This document shows, in pieces, positions 10,207 to 26,110 of a DNA stretch of 26,110 nt. The notes below the pieces were generated by a model. It worked only from the letters and a program-made list of their open reading frames with translations, had not been told where the DNA came from and ran no database searches. The position numbers and the translations under genes are program-made. Where the stretch lies: contig JBDHDE010000036.1 in the NCBI GenBank assembly GCA_039591655.1, forward strand, positions 1-26,110. Reading direction: 5' to 3'. This stretch comes from Gemmatimonadota bacterium. GTDB lineage: Bacteria > Gemmatimonadota > Gemmatimonadetes > Gemmatimonadales > GWC2-71-9. Positions within the stretch are counted from its first letter, which is position 1, and each line of letters starts with the position of its first letter.

Positions 10207-10262
10207 CGAGGAACTTCTCTTCAGCTCCGTCCGTCTAACTACTACACACAGCCTTCGGATCG

Positions 10263-10889
10263 ATGAAGCGACCACGGCTCACCGTGATCGCCGTTGCGTG
10301 TCTTGCCGCAGCGCTCAGCGCGGCCACGCTATACGGCCTCGTCTACCGCCCCTGGGCGCTCAACTGGGGCGCAACGGACGAGGAGATTCGCCGCCCCATG
10401 CCCGGCGACGAGATGCTGTTCGACCCCCCGTTCAACGCCACACGAGCCGTCACCATCGACGCGCCTCCGGAGGACGTCTGGCCTTGGATCGTCCAGATCG
10501 GGTACCGGAGAGCCGGCTTCTACAGCTACGACCGGCTGGACAACGACGGAATCCCCAGCGCGGACTCCATCATGCCCGAATACCAGGGCCTCCAGGTGGG
10601 TCACAGAATCCCGATGAGTGAAAACGCATTTGCCGGAGTGCGGATCCTGGAGCCGCCTCACTTCATGGTGTTGGAGTTCGAGACCACGGGAACGTGGGCC
10701 AATAGCTCGTGGGCGTGGGGGCTCTACGCGCAAGGTACGGGGCAGACACGACTCGTGACCCGGCTGCGCGTGCGCACTCCGCACTTCGCGTCCCAGTTCC
10801 TGCTGGACGCCCTCGAGATCGTCATGATGCGGAAGTGCCTGCTGGGCATCAAGCAGCGGGTGGAGCGGGCGGCGTCTCCCTCCAGCTGA
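10263..10889 (+). CDS. SRPBCC/START-fold-like conserved hypothetical protein with an N-terminal hydrophobic anchor
   Basis: WGATDEE..MPGD, TRAVTIDAPPEDVWPWIVQIG and GFYSYD-LDN motifs, followed by SWAWGL...TRLVTR. Confidence 0.7.
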   Translation: MKRPRLTVIAVACLAAALSAATLYGLVYRPWALNWGATDEEIRRPMPGDEMLFDPPFNATRAVTIDAPPEDVWPWIVQIGYRRAGFYSYDRLDNDGIPSADSIMPEYQGLQVGHRIPMSENAFAGVRILEPPHFMVLEFETTGTWANSSWAWGLYAQGTGQTRLVTRLRVRTPHFASQFLLDALEIVMMRKCLLGIKQRVERAASPSS

Positions 10890-10952
10890 AATCACCGACG
10901 GCCCGCGCCCAGATGGGGCCCTGGCCGTGTCAGCGGCTCCTAGGGCCCTGAT

Positions 10953-10976
10953 GGACACGTCGGTTCGGGCGTGTCC
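10953..10976 (+). repeat. 24-bp palindromic repeat, copy 1
   Basis: GGACACGTCGG-TT-CGGGCGTGTCC. Confidence 0.9.
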
Positions 10977-11013
10977 GGAGTCACCTCAAAACCGCGGCTA
11001 ATACCGAAAGCAG

Positions 11014-13728
11014 CTATCTGGTCAACAGCTCCGCCACCCAGACGTTCGCCTCGAACTCCTGAATAGTGAAGTAGAAGCGGGTGCCGTCGACTGTAAACCA
11101 CCACGTGGGGAACCTTCCCGAAGGATCACCGAGCTGGGCAACCATTCGGGACGGACCGCCCGATGCGGGCACGGACCAGATACCGTGAACTTCGCCACCC
11201 ATGCTTGCGATGTAGTAGATCGTGTTGCCGTCCTGCGACCACCGAGCGGACTGTGCGAGAGGGCTCCCCTCCTCAACCTCAACTAGGAGGCGGGGCTGGC
11301 GGTTCTCGAGCGGCAACACCCAGACACTTCCGACGCGATCATCCACGTATACGATCGCGGTGCCGTCCGGTGACCACTGGGGACTGAATCCGCCCTTCGT
11401 AGTCAGCTGCTCGGGTCTGCTCCACTCGGCCGCCCCGGGCTCGCGAGTCATGAGATACAGCTCTTGCTGGCCGGTTCTGTCCGACACGAAGACGATGGCA
11501 TTGCCGTCGGGTGACCAGTCGGGGAGTCGATCCTGGTCCGGGTGATCCGTGAGTTGTTGAAGCGCTCCTCCATCCGCGGACATCACGAACACATCGCGAT
11601 TACCTGTCCGCAGCGAGTAGAAGGCAATCTGGCGTCCGTTGGGTGACCAGCTGGGCGCATAATCATCCTGAAGATGCGTCGTGAGCCGTTGCGGTTCTCC
11701 ACCGGTCAATGGCGCTCGATAGATGTCCTGGTCTCCCTCTCGGTTCGAATCGAACGCCAACCATGCTCCGTCCGCCGACAGATCTGCGATTTCAATCACC
11801 TGAGTCTCCCCCGTCACCCGCGTGGCCTCGGTTATAGAGGCCACCCCCTGACTAGGCATCTCGAGGTACCAGAGGTTGGCCAGGTGGGTGAACACGGAGT
11901 AGGTCAGATGGGCGCCGTCGGCTGACAGGTCGATGCCGTGCGCATTGAGTCCTGTGGTGAGTCGCAACGGCGTCCCACGGGGCTCGCCCGAGCTGGCGAT
12001 GGCCACCTCATAGATGTCGCGGCTGCCGTCTCGGTTCGACACGAACAGGAGGTGTTCCCCGTCGGACCACCAGGCGGGACTGATGTTGAGAGCGTCCTCT
12101 CCTGTCACTTGCATTGGATTCTCGCCGGAGGACTTGACGACCCAGATCGAGCTCGGGTCGACGTTTCCGAAGTCACCGGTCCCGAACACAAAGAGCGAGG
12201 CTCCCGATACGAAGGCCAACATGGAACCGTTGGGAGACCAACGGAGGGAGTGCGCCTCGATCGCGTCGACCACTTTGCGCGGTTCTCCTCCACTCAACGA
12301 CAGGACGTAGATCTCACTCGGCTGACGCTGGTAAGCGATGCTGGCAGGATTCTCCTGCCACACGTAGGCTATCTGCTCTCCGTCGGGTGACCAGACAGGG
12401 CTGTGGAACACACCGCCTGCCGCCGGTTCCCCACTCGCGAAGCCTGGGGAACCTCCCACGACTCGGCGTGGTGTCCCCCCAAACACCGGAATCGTGAAGA
12501 TCGCGCCTTGAGACTCGTAGACGAGCTGCGTGCCATCGGGCGACCATTGGGGCGAACGGTGACTGCCCGTCAACCGGTCGGTGAGCTCGATCGTCCCACC
12601 GCCACCGAGCTGCTGCACGTAGAGACGCATTCGTCCAGCGGTACCGGCGGTGTAGCTCAGCATCCGGCCGTCAGGTGAGAAAGAGGGATCGACTTCGAGA
12701 CCGAGCGCGCGTGTGACCTGAGTCGTGCGACCCACGCGGAAGAGGGGTGCCTCCGGACCCGATCGCAGTACAAAGACGCCCACGATTGCAGCAATGACGA
12801 CGACGCCAATCCCGAGACCGATCGCATTCTTACGCTTGCTGACTGCCGGAACCGGTCGTGTATCGGTAGGGGTGATCCCGTCGCTCGGAGTCGTGAGCGC
12901 CTCAAGGTGTAGGAGCAACTCCTCCGCTCTCTGCCAACGGTCAGCGGGCTTCTTCTCCAAACACCGCATCACTAGCTGGGCCAGCGAACGAGGGACGGTC
13001 GCCCGATGTCTGGTGACGACATCAGGGGCCTGCGTCACGTGTGCCGAGAGCACTTCCTGGGGCGTCGTGCCAGTGAACGGCGGCTGCCCTGTCAGTAATT
13101 CATATGCCAGCACACCCACCGCATAGATGTCTGCCCGATGGTCAATGTGCGGATCGGCGACCGCTTGCTCGGGGGCCATGTAGGCCGGTGTGCCAAGGGC
13201 GACACCCGCCGTAGTAAGCTGCTGCCGCCCGGTAGCCTCGCTCACGGCCTTGGCCACGCCAAAGTCCGTCACCAGCGCGTGGTGCCCGGAGAGCAGCACG
13301 TTGTCCGGCTTGATGTCTCTGTGGACGACCCCGTGCTCATGCGCGTGGGCCAGTGCATCCACTACATCGCGCAGCAGCCGCACGGCCTCAGCGACCGGTA
13401 GCTCACCCTCCTTCGCCAGCTTCTCCCGCAAAGACTCGCCTTCCTCGTAGGGCATCACGTAATAGAGGAAGCCGCCAGCCTCGCCGGAGTCATAGAGTGG
13501 CAGGACGTGGGGGTGATGGAGCTGAGCAGCTATCTTGATTTCCCGGAGGAAGCGCTCCGAGCCCAGCGCCGCAGCGAGGTCCAGGCGGAGGACTTTGACC
13601 GCGACCTTGCGATCATGTCGCAGATCCCGGGCCAGATAGACCGTCGCCATGCCCCCGCTACCCAGCTCGCGCTCGATGACGTAGCGGTCTGCCAGCGCTT
13701 CTTTCAGGCGTTCGAGGAGATCCTGCAT
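11014..13728 (-). CDS. K1: Hanks-type Ser/Thr protein kinase + transmembrane helix + TolB-like (PD40) beta-propeller repeats
   Basis: GSGGMATVY, VAVK, HRDIKPDN, DFG, GTPAYMAPE. TM segment IGLGIGVVVIAAIVGVFVL. Many P-x-WSPDG repeats. Confidence 0.95.
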   Translation of the reverse strand: MQDLLERLKEALADRYVIERELGSGGMATVYLARDLRHDRKVAVKVLRLDLAAALGSERFLREIKIAAQLHHPHVLPLYDSGEAGGFLYYVMPYEEGESLREKLAKEGELPVAEAVRLLRDVVDALAHAHEHGVVHRDIKPDNVLLSGHHALVTDFGVAKAVSEATGRQQLTTAGVALGTPAYMAPEQAVADPHIDHRADIYAVGVLAYELLTGQPPFTGTTPQEVLSAHVTQAPDVVTRHRATVPRSLAQLVMRCLEKKPADRWQRAEELLLHLEALTTPSDGITPTDTRPVPAVSKRKNAIGLGIGVVVIAAIVGVFVLRSGPEAPLFRVGRTTQVTRALGLEVDPSFSPDGRMLSYTAGTAGRMRLYVQQLGGGGTIELTDRLTGSHRSPQWSPDGTQLVYESQGAIFTIPVFGGTPRRVVGGSPGFASGEPAAGGVFHSPVWSPDGEQIAYVWQENPASIAYQRQPSEIYVLSLSGGEPRKVVDAIEAHSLRWSPNGSMLAFVSGASLFVFGTGDFGNVDPSSIWVVKSSGENPMQVTGEDALNISPAWWSDGEHLLFVSNRDGSRDIYEVAIASSGEPRGTPLRLTTGLNAHGIDLSADGAHLTYSVFTHLANLWYLEMPSQGVASITEATRVTGETQVIEIADLSADGAWLAFDSNREGDQDIYRAPLTGGEPQRLTTHLQDDYAPSWSPNGRQIAFYSLRTGNRDVFVMSADGGALQQLTDHPDQDRLPDWSPDGNAIVFVSDRTGQQELYLMTREPGAAEWSRPEQLTTKGGFSPQWSPDGTAIVYVDDRVGSVWVLPLENRQPRLLVEVEEGSPLAQSARWSQDGNTIYYIASMGGEVHGIWSVPASGGPSRMVAQLGDPSGRFPTWWFTVDGTRFYFTIQEFEANVWVAELLTR

Positions 13729-13853
13729 GGAGCGCCTCGCGTCCGAACACCACTACAGTAGGTGCTTCCGTGCTAGTCAGCTAGGTGAAGAGGCGAGAGA
13801 TGCGCTCGGGTTTGGACCGGTGGTGGGGTGGGAGGACGAGAAGCGCCCGGCGC
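13660..13853 (-). repeat. Duplicated kinase leader (about 125 bp upstream plus the first ~23 codons), copy A
   Basis: Matches 22591-22783. About 12 differences in the ~128 nt from the ATG upstream, by manual alignment. Confidence 0.92.
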
Positions 13854-13867
13854 AGGTTGGGCGGGGT

Positions 13868-13891
13868 GGACACGTCCGGTCGGGCGTGTCC
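13868..13891 (+). repeat. 24-bp palindromic repeat, copy 2
   Basis: GGACACGTCCG-GT-CGGGCGTGTCC. Confidence 0.92.
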
Positions 13892-13964
13892 GGCTGCTCG
13901 AACCGTGGCTGGAGGACGTGGTGCCGGACAAGGGCAGACCCTTCGCGACGCCCCTCTTCTGACG

Positions 13965-15638
13965 CTATGTCAGGAGGATCTCCTCGACGCAGGAGTCGTC
14001 GGGTCCCTCCCGGAACTGAAGTAACCGGTAGCGCAGTCGGGGGTTGAGTTCTTTGACCGCCTGGTCCGTGAGTCGCAGCGGGCGGGTACGGCACCAGGCT
14101 TCAATGGCCGAGTGCTCCATGCCCAGCGCTCGTCCCGCTTCGTAGATGGGGCAGCGACCGGGCTTGAGCAGTACCCGGTTCGGACTCGCTTCCAGCACTT
14201 CCGGCTTGAAGCCAAGCGGTCGAATCAGCTCTGCGAGCAGTCTGGAGGTGGTCTTGGCATCCGCGCGCTCCGTGCCGAGCCCATCCTTCAGCTTCTGAAG
14301 CCTCGCACGCAAGCCGTGTATCTCCGAAACAGCTCTCAAATAGCTGTCGTAAGCCACCACACTATCGACGGGTCGCGCCGCCATTCGTTGGTCTTCCTCA
14401 GGGGTCAGCTTCACCTTGAGGGCGTCGACGATCTCTCGGGAGACATTCTCCTGAATATCGAACGCATCGTCGAGGGTCCCACTGAACTTTCCCGCCCAGA
14501 CGTGCACATCACAACTGGTGTCAATGAGCTGGGCCGTGATCCGAAGGCTGGTCCCAGCCTTCCTGACCGTTCCCTCCAGGGCGTACTGAACACCTATTTC
14601 CCGCGCAATGGACTGCATCGACCTGCGAGCACCCTTGAACATCATCGCGGAGGTGCGTGATACCACACGTAATTTGCTCACCTGAGACAAGTCGGTGATG
14701 AGTTCCTCGGTCAATCCATCTGCGAAGTACTCGTTGTCTGGGTCGGGGCTCAGATTCTCAAACGGCAGCACGACAATCGACTGCGTCTCAGTCTCAGGCA
14801 CGGTGCTTTCCGCAAACAGCGCTTCCGCAAACTGCGCAGCCGTCGCAAACCGATCCGCAGGGGTCTTGGCCAACGCCTTCGTTGTCGCCTGCTCAACCGC
14901 GTCTGGCACCGTCTCCCGCACAACCTTCAAGCTGGGGATTGGGTCCATCGACTTCCGCGCCAGGATGGCCTGCGCACTCGGACCCGTGTATGGGGGCTCG
15001 CCCCCCAGCATCTCGTACAGCAAACAGCCGAGCGCGTAGATGTCGGTCCGGCTGTCGGGCTCCCATTCCCCTGCCGCCTGCTCCGGGCTCATGTACGCCG
15101 GGGTGCCTACGGCAACTCCTGTCGCAGTGAGCTGCTCCCCGCCCGCCGCAGTAATCGCGCGTGCAATCCCGAAGTCAGCTACCACCGCATGGCCTGCCTC
15201 GAACAGGATGTTCTCCGGCTTGACGTCGCGGTGCACGATGCCCAGGGAGTGCGCATGGCCCAGCGCGTCCGCGACCTCGCGAGTCACTTGGAGCGCGTCG
15301 TCGATAGAGAGCTGCTTCTCACGCTTGAGGCGATCGCGGAGTGATTCGCCCTCGACGTAGGGCATGACGTAGTAGAGGAGGCTATTGGCCTCACCACAGT
15401 CGTGCAGGGACAGGATGTTCGGGTGGGTCAGCTTCGCCGCGATCTCGATCTCGCGGAGGAACCGCTCGGCACCGAGGGAAGCGGCCAGTTCGGGACGGAG
15501 TACTTTGAGGGCGACCTGGCGGCCGAGCTTCTGGTCACGGGCGAGGAATACCACCGCCATCCCACCACTACCCAACTCCCGCTCGATAGCGTAGCGGTCG
15601 GCGAGCGCGGTCTTGAGGCGGTCCAGCAGGTCGGTCAT
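13965..15638 (-). CDS. K2: cytoplasmic Ser/Thr kinase + TolB-N-like (COG5616-type) domain + C-terminal Cys-containing V4R/ATC-hydrolase-like domain
   Basis: Intact kinase motifs (HRDVKPEN, DFG, SPE) and no TM. SIVVLPFENLSPDPDNEYFADGLTEELI. C-terminus GRCPIYEAG...WC...LNPRL...DSCVEEI. Confidence 0.9.
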   Translation of the reverse strand: MTDLLDRLKTALADRYAIERELGSGGMAVVFLARDQKLGRQVALKVLRPELAASLGAERFLREIEIAAKLTHPNILSLHDCGEANSLLYYVMPYVEGESLRDRLKREKQLSIDDALQVTREVADALGHAHSLGIVHRDVKPENILFEAGHAVVADFGIARAITAAGGEQLTATGVAVGTPAYMSPEQAAGEWEPDSRTDIYALGCLLYEMLGGEPPYTGPSAQAILARKSMDPIPSLKVVRETVPDAVEQATTKALAKTPADRFATAAQFAEALFAESTVPETETQSIVVLPFENLSPDPDNEYFADGLTEELITDLSQVSKLRVVSRTSAMMFKGARRSMQSIAREIGVQYALEGTVRKAGTSLRITAQLIDTSCDVHVWAGKFSGTLDDAFDIQENVSREIVDALKVKLTPEEDQRMAARPVDSVVAYDSYLRAVSEIHGLRARLQKLKDGLGTERADAKTTSRLLAELIRPLGFKPEVLEASPNRVLLKPGRCPIYEAGRALGMEHSAIEAWCRTRPLRLTDQAVKELNPRLRYRLLQFREGPDDSCVEEILLT

Positions 15639-15764
15639 GGGGTGACCTGGGCTGGGAATGGTCTAAGGTATGGCTCAGGAATCGGATGGGCCAGACGGGG
15701 CCTTGAGCGTCAGCTACTCACGTACTCAGCATTAGAGGGCGTGGGCCCGCGATCTCGGGCTCCA

Positions 15765-15788
15765 GGATACGCTTGCACGGGCGTGTCC
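15765..15788 (+). repeat. 24-bp palindromic repeat, copy 3
   Basis: GGATACGCTTG-CA-CGGGCGTGTCC. Confidence 0.88.
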
Positions 15789-15860
15789 ACGGTCCTGCAG
15801 GCATGAGCGGGCGGGAGGCGGTTGGAGGAGTTGGCGGGAGGGGGGTGGTCTTGAGGGGCG

Positions 15861-16565
15861 TTACCGACCGGAGCCTCGCAGTTTCTGAATGTTGCGGTTG
15901 CTCATGGCGGCCAGGAAGGGATACAGCCAGCGCTGCACCGCATTGAAGAACACGTACTTTTCCGTCGCGAAGAACTGGGACGCGTCATCCCACGCGCCGT
16001 AGTCCTCGACTACGGCACCCATCTGCGCGAACCCCTTCTCCCCAAAGTTGAACTCACAGCTGCACTTCCCACCGACACACGCAAGCGAGTATCCCATTGA
16101 GCGCCCCGATTCCTCGAGCCGAGCACGGGCTGCCTTGAAGAGCGCTGCGTCGTTGATGTAGGAGTCGATCGGCCGCCACGTACCGTCGATATCCACCTCG
16201 GTCCAGGAGTGCGGACCAGCGCTCGGCAAGAAGGGGAACGCGAACGAGGGAAAGATGCCTCGCATGACGTCGACACCGATCAACCCGTAGTGCACTCTGG
16301 CAGGAATGCCGGAGGCCTTACAGAGGGCAACCAGCAGCGTCGCCTTGGTGTTGCAGTACCCGTAGCCCGCTCCGATGACTGCCGACGCCTTGATCCTGTC
16401 GAACTCCTTGAACCGTATCGGGAAGCCAAACCTGATGCTGTCACGGACGAAGAGAAACAGGCTTTCGAGCTTGTCCAGCGTGGCGTGTTGCCCGTCCACC
16501 AGCTTGGCTGCTGTTTCCACGATCAGCTTGTGATCGAAGTCCGACAGCCGTTCAGCATGATTCAT
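15861..16565 (-). CDS. Transglutaminase-like cysteine protease family protein
   Basis: Cys-His-Asp triad context GYCNTKATLLVALCKASGIPAR, HSWTEV, WRPIDS. Confidence 0.88.
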   Translation of the reverse strand: MNHAERLSDFDHKLIVETAAKLVDGQHATLDKLESLFLFVRDSIRFGFPIRFKEFDRIKASAVIGAGYGYCNTKATLLVALCKASGIPARVHYGLIGVDVMRGIFPSFAFPFLPSAGPHSWTEVDIDGTWRPIDSYINDAALFKAARARLEESGRSMGYSLACVGGKCSCEFNFGEKGFAQMGAVVEDYGAWDDASQFFATEKYVFFNAVQRWLYPFLAAMSNRNIQKLRGSGR

Positions 16566-16826
16566 AAGAGCATCTAGCAGCGGGCCGTTGAGGCCACTCG
16601 GCGGTTCGACGATCAGCCAAAGATCACCCGAGTGCGGTGGGCATCAAGGTGGGATTCTGTCGGGAATGTTCCTCCTTGGCGCACCGCATTCGGACCTGCT
16701 TCAACACATGTAGCAAGAGGCTCGGCGATCGTTGACAAATGTCGTCGCGTATCGCCCACGTCCTCGCTAGCCCCGCATCGCGCTGTACCCTATTGTAGTC
16801 CTGTCGCTGGCTGAGAGGCGCACCGC

Positions 16827-19778
16827 ATGGCCGACGTCTTCGAACGTCTCAAGGCCGCTTTGGGTGACCGCTACGCGATCGAGCGGGAACTCGGCAGCGG
16901 GGGGATGGCGACTGTCTATCTCGCCGAGGATTTGAAGCACGACCGCAAGGTCGCCGTCAAAGTCCTCCGCCCCGACCTGGCTGCGGCACTGGGCCCCGAG
17001 CGATTCCTCCAGGAAATCAAGATCGCTGCCCAGCTCCATCACCCCCACATCTTGCCGCTCCACGATTCGGGCGAAGCCGACGGCTTCCTGTACTACGTGA
17101 TGCCCTACGAGGCGGGACGCTCACTGCGCGACAAGCTAGCGACTGAAGGTGAGCTCCCCATCGGCGAGGCGGTGCGGCTGCTGCGCGATGTGGTGGATGC
17201 GCTCTCACATGCTCATGAACAGGGGGTGGTTCACCGCGATATCAAACCGGAGAATATCCTGCTATCCGGTCACCACGCCCTGGTGAGCGACTTCGGCGTG
17301 GCGAAGGCGGTGAGCGAGGCCACCGGGCGGGACAAGCTCACCACGGCGGGTGTGGCGCTGGGGACCCCGGCTTACATGGCACCTGAGCAGGCCTCGGCGG
17401 ACCCACACATCGACCAGCGCGCGGACATCTACGGCGTCGGGGCATTGGCATACGAGGTACTGACGGGTCGCCCGCCCTTCCTCGGCTCCACGCCGCAACA
17501 GGTGCTCTCGGCCCACGTGACGGAGACAGCGGAGCCGGTGACACGGTATCGCACGACGGTGCCGCCGGTCCTCGAGCAGCTCGTGATGCGGTGCCTGGAG
17601 AAGCGACCGGCAGACCGATGGCAAAGTGCGCAGGAGCTAGTGACGCAGCTCGAGGCACTGACCACGCCGAGTGGCGGGATCACGCCGACCGACACGCGGC
17701 CGATAACAGCCGCCGTCGGCCGGCGGCGGACCGGGCTCTACGTAGTGCTCGGCATCGCCGCTGCGGTGGCGGCTGTCGCGGCGGCGGCGTGGCTGCTGCG
17801 TCCGGTTGGAGAGCAGGAGCTGAATCCCAACCTGATCGCCGTCGCTCCGTTTGACGTTCTTGACACCTCGCTCGAGGACCCGTGGCGCGAGGGGTTGGCG
17901 CAAATCGTGGCCTTGGGAGTGGACGGCGCAGGGCCACTGCGGTGCGTGCCACCGTCCGTGATCTTCAAACACTGGAGCGGTCCCGGTGACATGGCGTCGG
18001 TGTCGGCCGTAGGGAGGGACGCCGGTGCCGGACTCGGCGTCTACGGCAGGCTGACCGGCAGCGGACCTGACTCGGTGCGTATGACGGCCACCCTGTTCGA
18101 CGTTCGCAATGATGTGGCCCTGGGTGAGTTCGACGACCTGTACGAATCCGTGGACCGTATCGACCGCCTGGGCGACTCCCTGGCGGCGCGAATCCTCACG
18201 GTCTTGAGTCGTGTCCGACCGCTCGGCGCGGTACGCACCAACTCGCTGGGCTCGAGCTCCCCGGCGGCGATCAAGGCTTTTCTGCACGGTGAGCAGCACT
18301 ACCGTCGGTTCAATGTGGACTCCGCACGCTTCTACTATGACCAGGCCATCGCGTCGGACAGTGGGTTTGGCTTGGCGTACGCCCGCAAGTGGAAGGCCAT
18401 GTGGTGGCGCGAGACCGTCGCGGGCGCCCTCATGGCCTTACGAGCCGGGGCTTTGAATCACGGTCTCGCGCGGCGAGAGAGCCTCCTCATCGTTATCGAC
18501 TCACTCTGGGCGGATTACTATGTCGCCGTATCCGCCTTTGCTAGCAATACGGGCGGTTGGTCGCGGTTCGACAGAATCTTCACGACCGGCGACATCCTGC
18601 TGCAGGAGTACCCGCACGATCCCGAGGTATGGTACGAGGTCGGGGAGACGTGGTTCCACCTAGGCCCGTTCGTTGGCGTGACTGAACAAGAGACATACGA
18701 GGCCTTCAGGCGGGCGGTCACACTAGATAGCGGCTACGTACCGGCCTATGAGCATCTGGTGGAGTTGAGTCTGACCCTCGACGGTCCTGCGGAGGCGATG
18801 CGGGTGGTGGACGCGTATCTCGGTCGGATCGATTGGCCGACGTACAGGGAGAGGCTGCGGCTTGTCAGGGAACTGATCAGCGGCGGTGGCGTGACGGCTG
18901 AGGCACAGCGGATGATCGATTCGGCCGATGGCGAGGTACTTTTCGCTGCGTGGCAGAAGCTCCATCCTTGGCCGGACTCCGCCGAGAGCGCTGTACACAT
19001 CACCCGGGCTCTCATGGCGCTGGACGAGAGTCCACTGGCGGTAACCCTCTTGACTACGTCGCTGGCGCAGCGAGGGCGCCTCCGGGAGGCATACGCGCTG
19101 AACGACCGGCTGCTGACTGGGCCTGTCCGCCAGCAGTTTCTGCGCGCCTTCCGAGTGGCTCAGTTCGCGGAGTTTGGGGTTCTGCCTCCGGACACTGCCC
19201 GGGCCGTGTTCGAGAACTGCATGGTCGGCGACCCATCCTGCTTCCTCTACTTCGCACTGCGCTGGTGGGCGGCACAACAGGACACGGCATCGCTGAAGCG
19301 CTACATAGGCATTGCAGACTCGATCCTTCAGATGGCCTCAGTCCCCGATACGAACCGCCTACGGCCCGACACGGCTGCCGTGCAACGATTCGGTGCACAG
19401 GTCGGTCGTGCCTACCTCGCCCTCGCACGGCGCGATACGGCCGCCGCGTTGGCAGGTCTCGCCGCGCTCCGACAGTGGCCGGTGCCCCTGACGCACAACG
19501 AGGAACTGACCCGCGCGCAGCTCCTGATCGCCCTCGACTCGTTGACGGAGGTGGCGGAGCTGCTCCGGGTGTTCCCCGGTCTGGTGGCCGCTGCCGGCGC
19601 GGAAGGCGTGGTCTGGACCTTGGAGCGTGCGCGAGTAGCGGACAGGCTGGGTGACCGCGAGGCTGCGATCCAAGACTACTCCTATGTCCTCGACGCCTGG
19701 CGCCACGCTGACCCCGAGCTTCAGCCTTACGTCGAGGAGGCGCGCACAGCGCTGGAGAGGCTCGCCGGCGGGCGGTAG
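16827..19778 (+). CDS. K3: Ser/Thr kinase + transmembrane helix + TolB-N-like domain + TPR-like helical region
   Basis: HRDIKPEN, DFG, APE. TM segment LYVVLGIAAAVAAVAAAAWLL. IAVAPFDVL, followed by TPR-like A..YY.QAI..DSGF.LAY segments. Confidence 0.93.
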   Translation: MADVFERLKAALGDRYAIERELGSGGMATVYLAEDLKHDRKVAVKVLRPDLAAALGPERFLQEIKIAAQLHHPHILPLHDSGEADGFLYYVMPYEAGRSLRDKLATEGELPIGEAVRLLRDVVDALSHAHEQGVVHRDIKPENILLSGHHALVSDFGVAKAVSEATGRDKLTTAGVALGTPAYMAPEQASADPHIDQRADIYGVGALAYEVLTGRPPFLGSTPQQVLSAHVTETAEPVTRYRTTVPPVLEQLVMRCLEKRPADRWQSAQELVTQLEALTTPSGGITPTDTRPITAAVGRRRTGLYVVLGIAAAVAAVAAAAWLLRPVGEQELNPNLIAVAPFDVLDTSLEDPWREGLAQIVALGVDGAGPLRCVPPSVIFKHWSGPGDMASVSAVGRDAGAGLGVYGRLTGSGPDSVRMTATLFDVRNDVALGEFDDLYESVDRIDRLGDSLAARILTVLSRVRPLGAVRTNSLGSSSPAAIKAFLHGEQHYRRFNVDSARFYYDQAIASDSGFGLAYARKWKAMWWRETVAGALMALRAGALNHGLARRESLLIVIDSLWADYYVAVSAFASNTGGWSRFDRIFTTGDILLQEYPHDPEVWYEVGETWFHLGPFVGVTEQETYEAFRRAVTLDSGYVPAYEHLVELSLTLDGPAEAMRVVDAYLGRIDWPTYRERLRLVRELISGGGVTAEAQRMIDSADGEVLFAAWQKLHPWPDSAESAVHITRALMALDESPLAVTLLTTSLAQRGRLREAYALNDRLLTGPVRQQFLRAFRVAQFAEFGVLPPDTARAVFENCMVGDPSCFLYFALRWWAAQQDTASLKRYIGIADSILQMASVPDTNRLRPDTAAVQRFGAQVGRAYLALARRDTAAALAGLAALRQWPVPLTHNEELTRAQLLIALDSLTEVAELLRVFPGLVAAAGAEGVVWTLERARVADRLGDREAAIQDYSYVLDAWRHADPELQPYVEEARTALERLAGGR

Positions 19779-19915
19779 GCGCCGTGGCGCGCGGGGAACT
19801 GCTCGGTGGCTGAGTTCCCCCGGCAGCTGTCCCAATCCCTCCCGATGCATAGGGTGCGGCTCCTTGAGCCCGCGCCGGATCCGGCTGGAGGTGGGTGCCG
19901 CCTCTGGTGATTAGT

Positions 19916-19939
19916 GGACACGCCTGCACGGGCGTGTCC
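19916..19939 (+). repeat. 24-bp palindromic repeat, copy 4
   Basis: GGACACGCCTG-CA-CGGGCGTGTCC; pairing extends to GT...AC (19914-19941). Confidence 0.92.
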
Positions 19940-20034
19940 ACCTGCGCAGGCATGAGGCATCGTTCACACCGCCCCCGTGCCTCCCCCACCAGCGCCGCCA
20001 GTTCCACCCGCGCCCGGTCCCACTCTTCACGCCA

Positions 20035-20168
20035 TTGAGGGCGAAGGGGCGATCGAGCTTCTGATCGCGCGCGAGGTAGACTACCGCCATCCCACCCTGA
20101 CCGATCTCCTGCTCGATGGCGTACCGGTCGGCAAGGGCAGATACGAGTCGCTCGTCGACGTCAGGCGT
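20035..20168 (-). pseudogene. Truncated N-terminal stub of a sixth Ser/Thr kinase
   Basis: Minus strand reads (ACG)PDVDERLVSALADRYAIEQEIGQGGMAVVYLARDQKLDRPFALN and then loses similarity. ACG sits where paralogs have ATG, overlapping the K4 stop. Confidence 0.85.
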
Positions 20169-22659
20169 GGCTGCCTGAGCTGCTCTCCCTCACGAGCTTC
20201 TGGAAGCGCGGGTGACTCTCAAGTGGGTGCCACATCGGATCGATGGCGAGCCACCGAGCGGAATGCGGTCCAGGAATCGACAACAGGCGCTCCAACTGGG
20301 CGACGGCAGCATCGTGAAGCCCGAGCAGCGTGTAGGTCTGCGCGAGCTCGAGCACGCGGTACGGTGCAATGCCATCCTTGTCGACGGGAGCCAGCGCTTC
20401 GAACGCCGTTCCTTCTGCGATTGCCTCGTCGGCACGGCCAAGCCCTGCGAGCGCTACGCCAAGGGCGCTATGAACACGCGCATCCTGGGGCTGATGCACG
20501 GCCTTCGCTCGCATCAGTGACTCAGCTGCGAGAAAGCCCGCTCGCGCAGCATCGAGATCGCCGCGCAACAGCTGAGCCAGCGCCCGGAGCAGCGCCCTTG
20601 GCGTATAGCCGTGAAGGGTGTCGAGTTCGTCGCTCTCCCATGCGTCGAGACACTCCAAGGCACGGTTGTAGTCACCGTCGAGCAACTCCAGCTGCACCCG
20701 CAGGAGTGGTGCCAGCCAGCCATCGGGAGCGCCGGCGCTGTTTGCTCGCTCGAGGCACAACCTGGCCTGCTGCGTGTCGCCCTTCCACGCTAGGTACAAG
20801 TAGGCCAGCTCGACATACGAGACGATCCAGTCCGGTGATATCTCGATGCCCCGCTCGTAGTACGGCACTGCGTTCTCGTAGTCTCGGGTCCAACGGTAGG
20901 CGCCTGCGACGTTGGTGGTGTGCACGGGATTCCGTGGGTCCAGCCACATGGCTTTCTTCTGACACTCCAGCCCCTCGTCCCACCTGCCTTCCCACATTCT
21001 GGTCAGGCCGATCAAGCGCCACAGCTGTGGGTCATTGGGCTGGTGCTGCAGACATGTGCGGAAGTGTGCCGTGGCTTCCGCATGGTTGAGCAGCGTCCAG
21101 TGCAGCATGCCGAGTGCCAGGTGTCCTTCCGGAAGATCCGGTCGAAGCGCCAGCGCGCGATCCACCGCGCTCCTAGCCTCCATCAGTCGCTGTTCCGTCC
21201 GGTCGTAGCCTATGTGGTACATGCCCGTGTGCATCCTTGAGAGCTGCGCGTAGGCCTGTGCAAACCCGGGATCGCATTCCACAGCCAGCTCGAACATCCG
21301 TTGTGCGTGGTCGTACTCAGACCGCAGGAATCCACGGCTCAGGCCGTCCAGGCCACGGAGGTAGTAATCGTACGCCTCCAGGCTCTCCGTCGGTCGCTCG
21401 CTGATCCGCTGCTCTTCTTCAGGGCTGAGCGTTACACGCAGCGCCTCCACGATGGCACGGGACACTCGCTCTTGGATCTCGAAGATGTCCTCCAGGGTGC
21501 CCGAGTACTTCTCTGCCCACAGATGCGCATCCGCAGGAGCATCGATCAGCTGCGCCGTGATTCGCAGGCTATTCCCCGCCTTGCGCACGCTGCCCTCGAG
21601 TACAAACTGGACGTTGAGCTCTCGGCCGATTGTGGGCAGGTCTTTGTCGGTGCCTTTGTAGCGCATGGTGGATGTGCGGGAGATCACGCGCAGTGCAGCG
21701 ATTTTGGTGAGTTCGGAGATCAGTTCCTCGGTGAGACCGTCCGCAAAGTACTCGTTGTCGGGATCGGGACTAAGATTGGAGAACGGCAGCACCGCGATCG
21801 ACTTGAGGTCGGACACACCTGCAAGTGGCCTAGCCCGGAGAGCCTCGGCGAACGTCGCCGCCGAGTCGAACCGGTCGGCCGGTGCCTTCGCGAGGGCCGT
21901 CATGAGCGCGGTGGCTACCTGCGAGGGCACGCCGGATCGCGCCGGGGCGATCGGCGGCACGGGCTCGGTCATATGGCGCGCCAGCACGGCCCGGGCCGTG
22001 GGGCCCGTGAACGGCGGCCGGTTCGCCAGCATCTCGTACAGCACGCACCCGAGCGCGTAGATGTCGCTGCGCGCGTCGATGGCGCGGTCTCCTGCAACCT
22101 GTTCTGGACTCATGTAGGCCGGTGTGCCCAGGGATAGTCCCGTCTCGGTCAGTCGTTCACCTCCGGCCTGCTGAACGGCCAGGGCGATGCCGAAGTCCGC
22201 CACCATCGCCTCGCCTTCGTGCAGCAGGATGTTCTCCGGCTTGATATCGCGGTGGATCACGTCGTGCCGGTGGGCGTGGTCGAGCGCGGATGCGACCTGG
22301 CCGGTGATGCGCAGCGCATCGTCGATCGGCAGCTGTGTCTCTCGTTTCAGTCGATCTCGGAGGGATTCACCGTCCACGTAGGGCATGACGTAGTACAGGA
22401 GACCATCGCCCTCTCCGCAGTCGTGGACCGATAGGATATTCGGGTGGGTAAGCTTGGCCGCGATCTCGATTTCACGGAGGAAGCGCTCCGTGCCGAGCGA
22501 GGCCGCAAGCTCAGGGCGGAGGACTTTGAGGGCGACGGCGCGGTTGAGCTTCTGGTCGCGCGCCAGATACACCACGGCCATCCCACCGTGACCCAGCTCG
22601 CGCTCGATGAGGTAGCGGTCCGCCAGCGCGGCCTTGAGGCGTTCGAGGAGGTCCTCCAT
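20161..22659 (-). CDS. K4: cytoplasmic Ser/Thr kinase + TolB-N-like domain + TPR repeats
   Basis: Start MEDLLERLK at 22659 (GAGG RBS, homologous to K1). HRDIKPEN, DFG, SPE and no TM. SIAVLPFSNLSPDPDNEYFADG, TPR repeats, terminal DPMWHPLESHPRFQKL motif. Confidence 0.93.
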   Translation of the reverse strand: MEDLLERLKAALADRYLIERELGHGGMAVVYLARDQKLNRAVALKVLRPELAASLGTERFLREIEIAAKLTHPNILSVHDCGEGDGLLYYVMPYVDGESLRDRLKRETQLPIDDALRITGQVASALDHAHRHDVIHRDIKPENILLHEGEAMVADFGIALAVQQAGGERLTETGLSLGTPAYMSPEQVAGDRAIDARSDIYALGCVLYEMLANRPPFTGPTARAVLARHMTEPVPPIAPARSGVPSQVATALMTALAKAPADRFDSAATFAEALRARPLAGVSDLKSIAVLPFSNLSPDPDNEYFADGLTEELISELTKIAALRVISRTSTMRYKGTDKDLPTIGRELNVQFVLEGSVRKAGNSLRITAQLIDAPADAHLWAEKYSGTLEDIFEIQERVSRAIVEALRVTLSPEEEQRISERPTESLEAYDYYLRGLDGLSRGFLRSEYDHAQRMFELAVECDPGFAQAYAQLSRMHTGMYHIGYDRTEQRLMEARSAVDRALALRPDLPEGHLALGMLHWTLLNHAEATAHFRTCLQHQPNDPQLWRLIGLTRMWEGRWDEGLECQKKAMWLDPRNPVHTTNVAGAYRWTRDYENAVPYYERGIEISPDWIVSYVELAYLYLAWKGDTQQARLCLERANSAGAPDGWLAPLLRVQLELLDGDYNRALECLDAWESDELDTLHGYTPRALLRALAQLLRGDLDAARAGFLAAESLMRAKAVHQPQDARVHSALGVALAGLGRADEAIAEGTAFEALAPVDKDGIAPYRVLELAQTYTLLGLHDAAVAQLERLLSIPGPHSARWLAIDPMWHPLESHPRFQKLVRESSSGSHA

Positions 22660-22783
22660 GGAGCACCTCGCTTCCGACACCACTACAGTAGGGGCTTCCG
22701 TACCAGGCAGCTAGGTGAAGAGGCGAGAGATGTGCTCGGATTTGGACCAGCGGTGGGGTGGAAGGACGAGAAGCGCCCGGCGC
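22591..22783 (-). repeat. Duplicated kinase leader, copy B
   Basis: Matches 13660-13853. Confidence 0.92.
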
Positions 22784-22914
22784 GGCCGGGCGCTAGAGAG
22801 GAGCCCCGACCGCCGCTCAGACGCCCGGGGCTGAGCTGCTTCGCACCTGCTCGGCGCTATCAGACAGCTTGTGAGCTGTCGTCGTGGATCGAACTCGTGA
22901 GGAAGTTGCGGTTC

Positions 22915-25599
22915 TCAGGGCACGATCTCCCGCAACTCCTCGAACCAGTTCTGCACCAGCACCAGGTCTTCCGTGGTGGTGGTCTCCTGCCGGATCATCA
23001 CGAACCGGGTATCGTCCAGGCTGACGTCGTACGCACGGTTGACGTTCAATCCCGCGTAGTCGGCTGCGGAGAAGAGCACCCGCTGTGACCCGAGTGCGAA
23101 TGTCGGGCCTGCCACCACCGATGCAGCGATCAGGTCGCCGGCGCCGCTCCGGTAGAACAGCTCCCGCCCGCTGTGACTCCAGAGGGGTTCGCTGCCACCC
23201 TCGGTGGAGATCATCCACATGGCGTCCTGCGAGTTGGGGAACGGCCGAACGTAGATCTCACGCATCCCCGATTCGTCGGACGCGTAGGCGAGCCACCGCC
23301 CGTCAGGCGAGATGGTCGGCGACACCTCCTCGAATGGCGTCGCCACGAGTTCGATGGCCACGCTGTCGATTCCGGGGCGCAGGGCTAGGATGTCGCCCCG
23401 CCCCGCCGCCTGGTTGTCGGTGCGGTAGACCAGCCACTGACCATCCTGCGACCAAATCCCTTCGAACACAATCCGTTCCTCCTCAAGCAGCTGTACCGCC
23501 GCCGCACTCCCGTCCGCTCTCTTCATGAACAAGGTGCTGGCACCATCACGATCGGAAACGAACACCACGGACTGCCCATCCGGGGTCCAGCTGACCCGCC
23601 AGTTCCTAGAGCCTTCGAAAGTGAGCTTAGTGGGCAGCCCAGCGTTCAGGTGCTTCACCCAGATGTCCTCTGGCGCGAACGATCGTGTGGCGCTCACCGC
23701 GAGCCGGGTGCCGTCCGGAGACAGCGCGAGCGTGGTGAAGATGCCGGTCCAGCCAGGCTCGACGTCAGTCTCGCTGCCGTCTCGCTCGACCCATACCAGC
23801 CGGTCCGCTGGAGCAGTCCCCGCCAAGTACAGAAGGTCGCCCGCATCCGACAGCGCCAACTCGGCCGCCCCCGCGAACTTGACCTGCACGCCTTCGAGCA
23901 GCGGCACCGGCGGCCCGGTGAGCTCAAGCCGGTCCTGGTCGAACGGTGCCGCCAGGAGCACGCCGTCATCCTGCACGTAGGCCAGGTGGCCCGTCGGGGC
24001 ATACCGCGCGTACACGCCTTGGACCAGCGTGCGAACACGGCCGGTGGAGAAGTCCACTACGCCGATGACGTAGGCGCTGCGATCGGACAGGTCCTGCGGG
24101 AGGACCGTGACTATGGCACCCCTGCCGTTGGGCAGCGCGTCCGCCCATCCGTGCGTGCGTTCGCCGCGCGCGGAGTCGACGGTCGTTACAAGCTCCAAGT
24201 CACCTCCCTGGGCCGGCACCCGCGCGAGGCCCTCATATGTGCTCACGTACAGGAAGCCGTCCGTTCCCCAGTCGAGGCTGCCCCCGTACAATACGTGCTC
24301 GATCATGCCAGAATCGACGAGCGTCACAGGAGGCCCCCCCACGAGGGAGACGACACGGAGTTCCACGAGGTCGGTGATGAACGCGACCGCCTGCCCATCG
24401 GGTGAAAAGGCCGGGCAACAGGCGGCATCCGTTCCTCGCAGCGGCGTCGCATCCAACTGATCGCGCTCGCGAATCCACAGCTGCCTTCCGCCACCCTGTC
24501 CCGGTCCCTGGTACACGAACCTCGAGCCGTCCGGTGCCAGCGCGACTGTCGGACCGAATGTATTCATGCGATCCTGTCCGGACGCCAACTTGAGGCTGAA
24601 GCGCCCCGTCGGCGCAGGCTGAAGCTCGGGTCCGGAGCGCGTGATGGCCCAGGTTGCCGCGACGACGGCGACCACAGCGACGCCCGCGAGTGCACGGCTC
24701 AGCGTGTTCCACCGCCAGCCACCAGCCGCTTCGGCAGCGGTACGTGCCACCTCCGGCGCCGTGAGGGTTGGGTTCGTCAACGCAGCGGAGAACTGGGCAG
24801 CGCTCGCGAACCGATCGGCGGGGAGTTTCTCCAGTGCCTTGTGCACCGTCGCCGCGACGTGGGCCGGAACCGTGCGCCGTCGTGTTGTGAGGTCCTGCGG
24901 CTCCTCGGTCAGGATGTGCGCCACCACCGCTTGCGCCGTGCTCCCGACGTGCGGGGGATCGCCGGTCAACATCTCGTACACCGTGGCCCCGAGCGAGTAG
25001 ATGTCGCTGCGCGCGTTCAGCTCCCGTGCTCCGGTCGCCTGCTCTGGGCTCATGTAGTGTGGGGTTCCGAGTGAGAGACCCGTTTCGGTGAGCCGCGTGC
25101 CCCCCGCCTGGCTCACGGCCAGCGCGACCCCAAAGTCCGCGACCAGAGGTTGCCCTGCTTGCAGCAGGATGTTCTCGGGTTTGATGTCGCGGTGCACGAT
25201 GTCGTGTTCGTGCGCGTACTGCAGTGCAGCGGCCACGCCCTCGGCTATCCTCACCGTCTCGTCCACTCCGAGTTGCTTCTCGTGATCCAGCTTGTCCCGG
25301 AGGGTGTCTCCCTCCACATACGGCATCACGTAGTAGACGAGGGTGTCCGCTTCCCCCGAGTCGTACAGCGGTAGGATGTTCGGGTGCTGCAGGTTGGCGG
25401 TGACCTTGATCTCGTTCAGAAACCGCTCGCCGCCAAGGATCGCTGCCAGCTCCGGTTTCAGCACCTTGATCGCCACCTGGCGATGATGTTTGAGATCCTC
25501 AGCGAGATAGACAGTCGCCATGCCACCGCGACCCAACTCCCGCTCGACGGCGTAGTGGTCAGCGAGGGCAGAGGTAAGGCGGTCGAGGACGTCGGCCAC
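22915..25599 (-). CDS. K5: Ser/Thr kinase + transmembrane helix + TolB-like (PD40) beta-propeller repeats
   Basis: GTG start at 25599 (VADVLDRL, AGGAG RBS). HRDIKPEN, DFG, SPE. TM segment ALAGVAVVAVVAATWAI. SPDG repeats and terminal LVLVQNWFEEL. Confidence 0.94.
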   Translation of the reverse strand: MADVLDRLTSALADHYAVERELGRGGMATVYLAEDLKHHRQVAIKVLKPELAAILGGERFLNEIKVTANLQHPNILPLYDSGEADTLVYYVMPYVEGDTLRDKLDHEKQLGVDETVRIAEGVAAALQYAHEHDIVHRDIKPENILLQAGQPLVADFGVALAVSQAGGTRLTETGLSLGTPHYMSPEQATGARELNARSDIYSLGATVYEMLTGDPPHVGSTAQAVVAHILTEEPQDLTTRRRTVPAHVAATVHKALEKLPADRFASAAQFSAALTNPTLTAPEVARTAAEAAGGWRWNTLSRALAGVAVVAVVAATWAITRSGPELQPAPTGRFSLKLASGQDRMNTFGPTVALAPDGSRFVYQGPGQGGGRQLWIRERDQLDATPLRGTDAACCPAFSPDGQAVAFITDLVELRVVSLVGGPPVTLVDSGMIEHVLYGGSLDWGTDGFLYVSTYEGLARVPAQGGDLELVTTVDSARGERTHGWADALPNGRGAIVTVLPQDLSDRSAYVIGVVDFSTGRVRTLVQGVYARYAPTGHLAYVQDDGVLLAAPFDQDRLELTGPPVPLLEGVQVKFAGAAELALSDAGDLLYLAGTAPADRLVWVERDGSETDVEPGWTGIFTTLALSPDGTRLAVSATRSFAPEDIWVKHLNAGLPTKLTFEGSRNWRVSWTPDGQSVVFVSDRDGASTLFMKRADGSAAAVQLLEEERIVFEGIWSQDGQWLVYRTDNQAAGRGDILALRPGIDSVAIELVATPFEEVSPTISPDGRWLAYASDESGMREIYVRPFPNSQDAMWMISTEGGSEPLWSHSGRELFYRSGAGDLIAASVVAGPTFALGSQRVLFSAADYAGLNVNRAYDVSLDDTRFVMIRQETTTTEDLVLVQNWFEELREIVP

Positions 25600-25787
25600 G
25601 CTGGCGAACTCCTGGTTGCCCGACAGATGAACGTTACGGATCAGAGCTGCGGTCGGCCAGCCTCCTGAGGAGGCCGACTGAGTGCGATCGTCCTGGTCGG
25701 GATTCTGCGGGGGTTCTGGGCTAGACAGGAGTGGAAACGAGCCCGCGCCTAGTCCGGCTGCAGGTGGTGACGCTTCTAGCGACCAGC

Positions 25788-25811
25788 GGACACGCCCGGT
25801 CGGGCGTGTCC
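25788..25811 (+). repeat. 24-bp palindromic repeat, copy 5 (perfect arms)
   Basis: GGACACGCCCG-GT-CGGGCGTGTCC. Confidence 0.93.
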
Positions 25812-25846
25812 AACGCCTGAGACTCTGCAGCTCACCCAAGCGGCGC

Positions 25847-26110
25847 CTACAGGGTGAGATCCCCCACCGCCCTCCTGACCTCCTCACCATGCGTCAGGGA
25901 CAGCACGTGCCCCGCGCCCTCCACTAGTCGCAGCTCAGCGTCGGGAAGCCGCCGCGCCAGATCTTCCGCCACTGAGGTCGCGAACAGCGTGTCCTCCGTG
26001 CCGTGCAGCACGATGGTTGGCACCCCGATATCACCCAGCATGCCTCGCACATCGAAGCCGCGCATGGCGCAGCGGTAGGAGCGCATCGCCCGCCAGCCCG
26101 TGTTACGCCA
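25847..26110 (-). CDS. Alpha/beta hydrolase, C-terminal part (5' end outside the window)
   Basis: IGVPTIVLHGTEDTLF (catalytic Asp region) and LVEGAGHVL (catalytic His). Frame is open to the window edge. Confidence 0.88.
   Translation of the reverse strand, partial: WRNTGWRAMRSYRCAMRGFDVRGMLGDIGVPTIVLHGTEDTLFATSVAEDLARRLPDAELRLVEGAGHVLSLTHGEEVRRAVGDLTL

Follow-up and report, generated by a model that had tools for sequence, protein, structure and literature searches.

A palindromic 26-bp site in a Gemmatimonadota accessory island, probably the crossover site of a short serine recombinase

Introduction

The hix/gix sites and resolvase site I have a 26-bp 12-2-12 geometry and are served by small enzymes. 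Ccr enzymes, which are full-length large serine recombinases, target a single fixed position in the chromosome; the host XerC/D act at pdif, whose layout is 11-6-11; and the sites of tyrosine recombinases have a centre of 6–8 bp. Among the large serine integrases, the helix equivalent to the one considered below reads positions −11 to −9 in Bxb1 and contacts bp 9–11 in the LI integrase.

Here we analysed a 26,110-nt stretch of a Gemmatimonadota genome (the window), in which an island of accessory genes (10.9–26.1 kb) is punctuated by five copies of a palindrome. From sequence comparison, the palindrome is probably the 26-bp crossover site of a serine recombinase of ~235 aa, and its copies probably mark joints of accessory-block exchange downstream of a recombinase gene that seems to have decayed since. 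With the large serine integrases (Bxb1, SPbeta SprA, LI/A118 and phiC31) the protein shares the catalytic plus recombinase domain fold, and its helix covaries with the site at the base positions that those enzymes read. It differs from them in ending after the recognition helix, short of the at least 400 aa of that class and without zinc ribbon or coiled coil, and in having one symmetric 26-bp site, not a 40–50 bp attP/attB pair. The site has the geometry of hix/gix and resolvase site I, and the catalytic domain matches Gin and gamma-delta resolvase; unlike Hin/Gin and the Tn3-type resolvases, however, the protein carries a C-terminal integrase-type recombinase domain in place of the resolvase HTH. 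In contrast to Hin/Gin, the centre is variable and the sites do not flank a switch as an inverted pair, and most loci lack the subsites II/III of resolvases. As is proposed for this island, composite islands of the staphylococcal cassette chromosome (Ccr) and Acinetobacter pdif modules accrete DNA blocks in tandem with recombinase sites between them, but the enzyme here is not a full-length integrase acting at a fixed site, and the site is not of the 11-6-11 kind. In our literature search, which covered little of the subscription journals, we found no description of this recombinase–site system.

The site and its surroundings

All five copies lie where the original prediction had placed them, with centres TT, GT, CA, CA and GT and an invariant right arm (Table 1). 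Shuffles of the window gave a mean of 0.02 and a maximum of 1 match to the pattern, against the 5 seen. The palindrome itself was borne out, whereas its length had been put too low at 24 bp: a pyrimidine is usual directly 5′ of the 24-mer and a purine directly 3′, and the true unit is 26 bp, arranged 12-2-12. Such inverted ~12-bp arms around a 2-bp centre are the architecture of a serine recombinase crossover site, and the 2-bp centre excludes the 11-6-11 XerC/XerD arrangement, in line with the absence of a dif-type spacer that had been reported. By ORF coordinates, copy 1 lies 37 nt past the stop of K1, copy 2 lies 73 nt past that of K2, copy 3 lies 72 nt past that of the transglutaminase gene and copy 5 lies 35 nt past that of the hydrolase gene, while copy 4 ends 95 nt before the kinase-like stub; these distances and the absence of full copies from positions 1–10,900 agree with what had been reported. 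Site 3 fell below threshold in the profile scans. As the contig ends inside the hydrolase gene, the array may continue past position 26,110.

Table 1 Features of the island, in positions of the window
Feature	Positions	Strand	Remarks
Probable eroded 3′ tail of a serine recombinase gene	10908–10951	+	TAG at 10941–10943, then the family's 8-nt linker to the site
Site 1, 12-2-12, centre TT; gene-proximal, putatively attI-like position	10952–10977	.	Pattern and profile scan
K1, PD40-propeller Ser/Thr kinase; site 1–site 2 block	11014–13728	−	
Site 2, centre GT	13867–13892	.	Pattern and profile scan
K2, Ser/Thr kinase; block between sites 2 and 3	13965–15638	−	
Site 3, centre CA, degenerate left arm	15764–15789	.	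Pattern match
Transglutaminase-like gene; block between sites 3 and 4	15861–16565	−	
K3, Ser/Thr kinase; block between sites 3 and 4	16827–19778	+	
Site 4 left flank, related to site 5 left flank (25739–25786)	19866–19914	+	80% over 75 bp, site included
Site 4 (CA centre); forms a direct matched pair with site 3, 4,151 bp away	19915–19940	.	
Truncated kinase N-terminal stub	20035–20170	−	Family D3, 74% to reference copy
K4, TPR-repeat Ser/Thr kinase; site 4–site 5 block	20161–22659	−	
K5, PD40-repeat Ser/Thr kinase; site 4–site 5 block	22915–25599	−	
Site 5 (GT centre, perfect arms); forms a direct matched pair with site 2, 11,920 bp away	25787–25812	.	
Alpha/beta hydrolase, 3′ part	25847–26110	−	Contig end

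Seven copies are present in the 3.3-Mb genome, five of them in the window, and 12 of 400 other genomes of the order carry the site, each in 1–4 copies; viral contigs searched with the site pattern gave no exact match. The flanks, described earlier as mostly unrelated, are not so to the left of copies 4 and 5, which resemble each other, nor to the left of copy 3, which matches contig C61 over 841 bp, with homology that stops precisely where the C61 copy has its far edge. The 5′ region of K2 is homologous to the C61 kinase region as far as the C61 site. Two transposon-related candidates were rejected. An IS3-like miniature element, judged by TG ~20 nt outside the arms as at IS3 ends, fits no locus beyond the left flanks of copies 4 and 5. 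An IS circle junction or short terminal repeats were set aside because lone half-sites are not enriched (of 16 exact 11-mers in this assembly, 8 lie in palindromes).

The proposal that the site assembles kinase genes did not survive a wider count: 13 of 68 sites have a kinase no more than 1 kb away, against 23 of 236 random intergenic points, 5 of those 13 sites come from this genome, and most of the 89 kinase ORFs of the assembly have no site nearby. An attI- or attC-like site of an integron integrase has the slimmest of chances. Its best case is L033 and L037, where the palindrome lies ~100 nt upstream of an IntI-like gene, together with an IntI-like fragment on contig C97 of this assembly; but L033 and L037 are a single related locus, the C97 fragment has no site, and a 2-bp centre does not suit a tyrosine recombinase. 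As noted in the original prediction, the window contains no attC-type R-box pair (RYYYAAC/GTTRRRY cores), and no IntI tyrosine recombinase was found there beside the array.

A short serine recombinase gene adjoins the site

At other loci the site starts 8–9 nt after the stop of a gene for a ~235-aa serine recombinase, composed of a catalytic (PF00239) and a recombinase (PF07508) domain. Searching from the pattern, 4 of 23 Gemmatimonadota loci have this gene, or its 3′ part, ending beside the site. Searching from the protein, a site lies near the stop in 28 of 32 recombinase loci, against 2 of 758 genes of this assembly; the count covers loci of at least 64% identity with a readable 3′ end, accepts sites between −30 and +120 nt relative to the stop, and leaves out unreadable 3′ ends, lower identities and the duplicate L107. 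The other 4 loci have no adjacent site. The catalytic Ser is present in at least 90% of 38 aligned sequences, and Y8, R10 and the DRLxR residues are invariant. A cognate recombinase with an intact catalytic motif is thus linked to the site at other loci, not in this assembly.

The C-terminal half aligns with the SPbeta recombinase domain, including the predicted recognition helix, and not with the Gin HTH; Bxb1 is matched by the recombinase model over its full length. The best 120 relatives measure 216–365 aa in a search restricted to 129–413 aa, and none longer was found at E ≤ 1e-40, which is weak evidence. We rejected the idea that the short protein is the cut form of a long integrase, as the gene stops before the centre of the site and no long relative was found. 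More distant recombinases (41–59% identity) have palindromes of their own, with 12- or 13-bp arms and a 2-bp centre, located at the stop in 16 loci and upstream in L047; these distant subfamilies have a single site in 18 of 18 loci. Over all the recombinase loci, tandem subsite-like copies occur 3′ of the gene in only 8.

No recombinase of this family was found in the window, which had originally been reported to have no recombinase at all. None was found in the 95%-complete assembly either, by tblastn, with the PF00239 and PF07508 models or in a permissive profile search of all six frames, nor in 4 of 5 other site-bearing genomes checked. Scored against a profile built from 21 recombinase tails, the flank to the left of copy 1 ranks first among the flanks outside recombinase loci (p ~3e-4 for a single flank, with 134 flanks scored), and it probably keeps an eroded tail of the recombinase gene, a signal of modest strength.

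Arm bases follow the predicted recognition helix

Natural variation ties the arms to the predicted helix. At arm position −11, all 13 loci with a W-x-His helix have G, and 14 of the 15 with W-x-Ala have T. The next helix residue goes with position −9: Ser or Thr with C, in at least one arm, in 21 of 21, and Gly or Ala with T in 6 of 6. L054 is an exception to the helix rule, and at L087, L093 and L095 the far arm is of a rare type that keeps company with the near flank, and its T at −9 is contrary to the rule. Hybrid sites with unlike arms occur at L106 and C35. In a tree built without the helix, whose support is mixed, both helix states are scattered over several parts (the position of L051, which was mis-cut and has a long branch, is meaningless). 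Because the site adjoins the recombinase gene and changes with the predicted DNA-reading helix, its copies are likely the exchange points of that enzyme, which upholds the earlier suggestion of a serine recombinase site.

The centre is variable and asymmetric

None of 76 sites has a self-complementary centre, against 24.7% for the same 8-bp context in this assembly, a restriction shared with polar crossover sites of serine recombinases; the count leaves out seven non-Gemmatimonadota pattern matches and the window's own duplicate loci. Three matches inside coding sequences (centres GG, CG and GG), counted apart, make it 1 of 79. Self-complementary centres outside the count belong to L188, in coding sequence, and L025, a non-Gemmatimonadota match. 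The centre nonetheless varies, over five classes, as in the orthogonal att sets of large serine integrases, where the 2-bp centre is variable and the classes are asymmetric only (PMC3936721). Close flank-swapped pairs mostly keep their centre, yet two sites of G214 with a common left flank have reverse-complement centres. Neighbouring sites mostly have unlike centres, which counts against the model proposed below, since a single matched-centre insertion does not yield them. Sharing of a centre class within genomes (13 of 49, against 10.1 expected; p 0.18) is not above chance, and the nested order GT(CA,CA)GT of the window is not significant (p ~0.055).

These rules bear on whether the palindrome is instead a REP-like or terminator-like hairpin, acting behind genes as ssDNA or RNA, an option kept in the original prediction beside an operator. 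Copies 35–73 nt past stops would suit a hairpin, as would two-sided changes in the outer arm and the U-G pair often formed at position 9. The two-sided changes, however, track the recombinase helix, the hybrid sites have unlike arms, in 4 of 18 sequences the outermost bases do not pair, and a loop has no reason to shun self-complementary dinucleotides. Seven genomic copies fall short of the tens to hundreds of a REP-like element, no Y1 (RAYT) transposase gene (PF01797) was found in the 95%-complete assembly, and neither an Rfam match nor a terminator-like hairpin with a U-tract was found, the lack of a U-tract having been reported already. A hairpin is therefore very improbable.

Flanks are exchanged at the site and arrays extend to one side

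Homology between loci breaks at the site. Pairs sharing the left flank and pairs sharing the right flank both occur, with the opposite side at background; in these comparisons a crossover at the centre is not distinguishable from one at the outer edge. Around 47 recombinase loci (L109, L110 and L117 left out), there are 5 extra sites in 90 kb of downstream sequence and none in 143 kb of upstream sequence (p ~0.009; because the loci are related, this and the other p-values overstate the evidence). The array on a single side of the recombinase gene resembles an integron, by analogy only. Neither a partner site nor an attL/attR-flanked element was seen in the 143 kb upstream, and no directionality factor was found. 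Exchanges between arrays were one-sided only: no cargo block bounded by sites at both ends was seen in two different arrays. Cargo homologues occur without sites: in G010, neither an 88% identical copy of the transglutaminase gene nor a full homologue of K2 (76%) has one.

With homology breaking at the site, we hold it highly improbable that the palindrome is the operator of a dimeric regulator, such as the neighbouring Xre or the recombinase itself, for adjacent kinase promoters. Several copies do lie 130–190 nt upstream of kinase starts, and in several loci the recombinase has an Xre gene as its divergent neighbour. But it is the recombinase stop that the site comes after, and not a promoter; kinases are not enriched, and an operator would leave the centre rule without explanation.

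A weightier alternative, though still an unlikely one, accepts the same enzyme and site and assigns them to multimer resolution or to excision of a circular mobile element; the arrays would then be scars of stacked, decayed elements with occasional fusions, and no genes would be captured. Homologues of equal size (40–44% identity) reside on small plasmids, and 2 of 5 checked have a lone 12-2-12 palindrome upstream of the gene. Recombinase loci adjoin genes for Xre, ArdC, primase-like AAA_25 and tyrosine integrases, truncated recombinase stubs beside sites are common, and the site-free cargo homologues and the 1–4 scattered copies of most site-bearing genomes also fit. On the other side, the blocks of the window hold accessory genes and no element genes, extra sites are confined to one side of the gene, both flanks swap, and a single fixed res site would have no need of five centre classes.

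Discussion

The island is best read as an orphaned, integron-like accretion array. In integrons and the integrase-less attC clusters (CALINs), too, a recombinase gene has a site beside it, any further sites are confined to one side, the accessory genes separating the sites are unrelated to one another, and arrays outlast the enzyme. They differ in using a tyrosine recombinase and a folded attC, where the present system has a serine enzyme and a short sequence-specific palindrome. Blocks here measure 1.9–5.9 kb and comprise one to three genes, some of them in opposite orientation, whose upstream regions are long; the arrays are short (2–5 sites), and their cargo has homologues without sites.

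More tentatively, the system may be a 'serine integron', in which a minimal, direction-free integrase of catalytic and recombinase domain builds and reshuffles arrays from a symmetric 26-bp site, the centre serving as an orthogonal address code and a two-residue helix code retargeting the enzyme. In the mechanism proposed under the main reading, a dimer would bind both 12-bp arms through the recombinase-domain helix, and two dimers would cut on either side of the 2-bp centre and exchange strands by rotation. Because the enzyme lacks zinc ribbon and coiled coil, there would be no attP/attB distinction and any pair of sites could recombine. The asymmetric centre would set orientation and serve as a compatibility code of five or six letters. 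Gene and site may travel together on integrative, satellite-like elements, and the sites that these leave behind could capture later circles. Blocks between unlike centres would be locked in; those between like centres (sites 3 and 4, sites 2 and 5) could be excised if the enzyme returned, and the window predicts two exact circles, one of 4,151 bp and the other of 11,920 bp.

The residue–base pairings at −11 and −9 come from natural variation, at the same positions that engineers are reprogramming in Bxb1, and the system makes testable what a serine integrase does without zinc ribbon and coiled coil. If the reading is true, it would offer a compact (~235 aa) recombinase with 26-bp sites, no accessory DNA and five or six natural centre classes, and tools based on attC or on full-length integrases would miss such systems. 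If the enzyme works as proposed, it would be a gene-accretion device whose parts are unlike those of integrons.

A rare palindrome in the window and its genome

All five palindromes of the original prediction were recovered at their positions, against an average of 0.02 in shuffled sequence. The palindromic unit held but its length of 24 bp (11-2-11) was revised to 12-2-12, because the base 5′ of the 24-mer is mostly C/T and the base 3′ mostly A/G. An assembly scan of this genome (G000; 3.31 Mb in 149 contigs, of which the window makes up contig C36 entirely) with at most three mismatches to a perfect palindrome yielded six copies, five in the window and one on contig C61, and a profile added a seventh on contig C35. 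The pattern was present in 3 of 60 relatives, and a looser pattern, applied to 401 genomes of the same order with G000 among them, matched 13 and no controls; the site is therefore rare and patchy, unlike the REP element offered as an alternative in the original prediction. Exact matches in species-representative genomes comprised 30 stretches, 23 titled Gemmatimonadota. By membership tests, the site system also falls outside the REP, dif and Hin/Gin classes. The tRNA-like 3′-end fragments seen near some sites (table) suggest remnants of tRNA-targeting integrative elements.

Between the copies lie five Ser/Thr kinase genes (tails PD40, TPR or unassigned), a transglutaminase-like gene and a hydrolase gene. 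The left edge of the island comes after a VWA gene, and the genes beyond differ in all seven relatives readable there.

Coordinates of sites and side features (K, window kinase genes; L, loci from other genomes, metagenomes or viral contigs)
Feature	Location	Observation
Copies 1–5	window 10952, 13867, 15764, 19915, 25787	26-bp palindromes
Sixth copy	C61:20568	
Seventh copy	C35:68617	Near by-eye tRNA 3′-end fragment; no ARAGORN call
Sites in L011, L015	~1450–1500; ~2930–2980	As for seventh copy
K1/K4 upstream regions	window 13747–13853, 22677–22783	92% identical over 107 bp; K4 copy terminates at GC-rich hairpin in place of site; hairpin family also adjoins sites in C61, L010, L013
K1/K3 kinase domains	window 12853–13729, 16826–17702	877-bp inverted pair, 76% identity
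Low-GC ORF	window 9112–10023	57.5% bin; between core genes and site 1
Short acidic/basic ORF	window ~10033–10206	Between core genes and site 1; 79–89% DNA matches in seven congeners, elsewhere in their genomes
Short motif	L030, L079, L084, L087, L094	Recurs 15–25 nt right of site; loci otherwise different
Tandem arm pairs	L079, L080, L081, L086, L087, L093, L095, L139	2–3 pairs directly past recombinase stop; first has longer centre (~8–9 nt); resemble resolvase subsites
Sites by IntI-like genes	L033:4001, L037:1323	~100 nt upstream of IntI-like integrase gene; in L033 gene split, then IS110 gene
Plasmid palindromes	L222:2890, L224:2817	12-2-12, inner CG-NN-CG as in site, upstream of ~40% homologue
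Reverse-complement centres	L214:5009/L215:4985; L088/L097; L006/L083; L079/L086	Flank-sharing sites
Satellite-like element	L157 (IMG/VR contig) 4000–14100	AAA_25 gene, primase-like ORF, then recombinase, site, kinase and Ig-domain gene, second site

A serine recombinase gene adjoins the site in other loci

The original prediction proposed looking for a co-occurring recombinase: a serine recombinase of about 235 aa does adjoin the site in other loci, but none of this site-linked family was found in the G000 assembly. In 4 of 23 Gemmatimonadota loci (L024, L019, L015 and L040), the end of the gene, or of its 3′ part, lies next to the site; the L024 protein contains PF00239 and the first half of PF07508. 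In the reverse, protein-first search, an alignment of 38 relatives fetched 79 metagenome and 29 viral loci. Restricting these to distinct loci in which identity was 64% or more and the 3′ end could be read left 32. In 28 of them the site was present between −30 and +120 nt relative to the recombinase stop, its start most often 8–9 nt past the stop; the same rule was matched behind 2 of 758 G000 genes. Loci L102, L104, L106 and L115 had no site in that interval; L106 has a distant downstream site. Recombinases at 41–59% identity have other palindromes, again built around a 2-bp centre; some of these overlap the stop codon. We consider it very probable that the palindrome is the recombination site of this serine recombinase family.

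The family is large (best 120 hits 69–100% identical, 216–365 aa, in a search confined to 129–413 aa), and a search of longer proteins returned no longer relatives at E ≤ 1e-40, which is weak evidence. An AlphaFold model (pLDDT 83) aligns over its length with the Bxb1 and SPbeta integrases, the C-terminal half matching SPbeta residues 142–247. The protein ends shortly past the helix following a conserved Trp, and zinc ribbon and coiled coil are absent. By membership tests the system falls outside the large serine integrases, although it resembles their inner half, and outside the integrons, although it shares their layout; that it might be a true integron analogue is a tentative reading, which we lean slightly against. 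No published description was found in the literature searched. A multimer-resolvase reading of recombinase and site is less probable but plausible, since small plasmids carry homologues at about 40%; of five such cases, two show one palindrome, upstream of the gene.

Recombinase helix and site arm covary

With the centre counted as −1/+1, all 13 loci that have His two residues past the Trp carry G at −11, and 14 of the 15 that have Ala carry T (exception, L054); two further loci carry other residues and two are unreadable. At the following residue, Ser/Thr is matched by C at −9 in one or both arms (21 of 21 loci) and Gly/Ala by T (6 of 6). Fisher P values, with kinship ignored, were 7e-7 (−11) and 3e-6 (−9). 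When the helix is excluded from tree building, His and Ala rows interleave in several groups, with strong support on only three branches. Passages of PMC3783163 describe helix alphaH of the recombinase domain touching bp 9–11, and passages of bioRxiv 2024.05.09.593242 describe reprogramming of Bxb1 helix 231–237 against positions −11 to −9. For the window arms we predict an enzyme of the His-Thr/Ser type, as in L024 and L078.

Asymmetric centres and breakpoints at the site

Centres of 67 distinct sites were AC/GT (22), AA/TT (14), GA/TC (13), AG/CT (9), CA/TG (8) and CC/GG (1). None was self-complementary, nor was any of 76 once window copy 3 and eight new extragenic places were added, against 24.7% in the same 8-bp context in G000. 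Three extra matches lie within ordinary genes, one with a CG centre, and one of seven loci left out of the count has an AT centre. According to passages of PMC3936721, only the six asymmetric overlaps yield oriented, mutually orthogonal sites, and symmetric overlaps recombine in either orientation; the make-up of the natural centres is in line with this. Neighbouring sites mostly differ in centre, sites of one genome do not share centres significantly more often than chance, and the window's nested order GT(CA,CA)GT is suggestive at most. Some flank-sharing sites have reverse-complement centres (table), as though the 2-bp centre were able to invert.

Breakpoints at the motif, another proposal of the original prediction, were borne out: homology between loci ends at the site. 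Over 30 nt, random pairs gave a median of 10.5 and a 99th percentile of 15.5. The left flank is shared (19.5–29), with the right at background, by eight pairs, including copy 3 with C61 and copy 4 with copy 5; three share the right flank (17.5–25) with the left at background, and two pairs are uninformative. The centre is kept in six of the eight left-sharing pairs (the G214 pair is reverse-complement, copies 4 and 5 differ) and in two of the three pairs sharing the right. The arms resemble each other so closely that the break may lie anywhere from the centre to the outer edge.

Arrays, cargo and a probable decayed recombinase gene

Four loci (L081, L084, L138 and L157) have the order recombinase–site–cargo–site, the cargo of L157 being a kinase. 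Across 47 recombinase loci, extra sites numbered 0 in 143 kb upstream versus 5 in 90 kb downstream (P ~0.009). Neighbours of the recombinase gene include Xre, ArdC, AAA_25 and tyrosine integrase genes, and DNA past the sites includes SMODS, TIR, restriction-modification, STAND and kinase genes. In the window, no flank outside recombinase loci matches a profile of recombinase tails better than the 44 nt to the left of copy 1, where a TAG and the 8-nt linker also fall in register (P ~3e-4 for one flank, 134 flanks scored). Genome G102 shows like decay, with a recombinase gene stub at one site and a short tail only at another. We read the window as a putative orphaned array whose recombinase gene, once on its left, has been lost; the copies probably mark joints where accessory blocks were exchanged into an island downstream of a recombinase gene that appears to have decayed since.

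The role in kinase assembly suggested by the original prediction was not upheld: kinases are not favoured cargo (13 of 68 sites, five from G000, versus 23 of 236 random points), and the 3.3 Mb of G000 hold 89 Ser/Thr kinase ORFs, many clustered without a site. Another genome, G010, has both the transglutaminase gene and a homologue of K2 without sites, so the blocks resemble accessory DNA that was captured more than cassettes made for the purpose.
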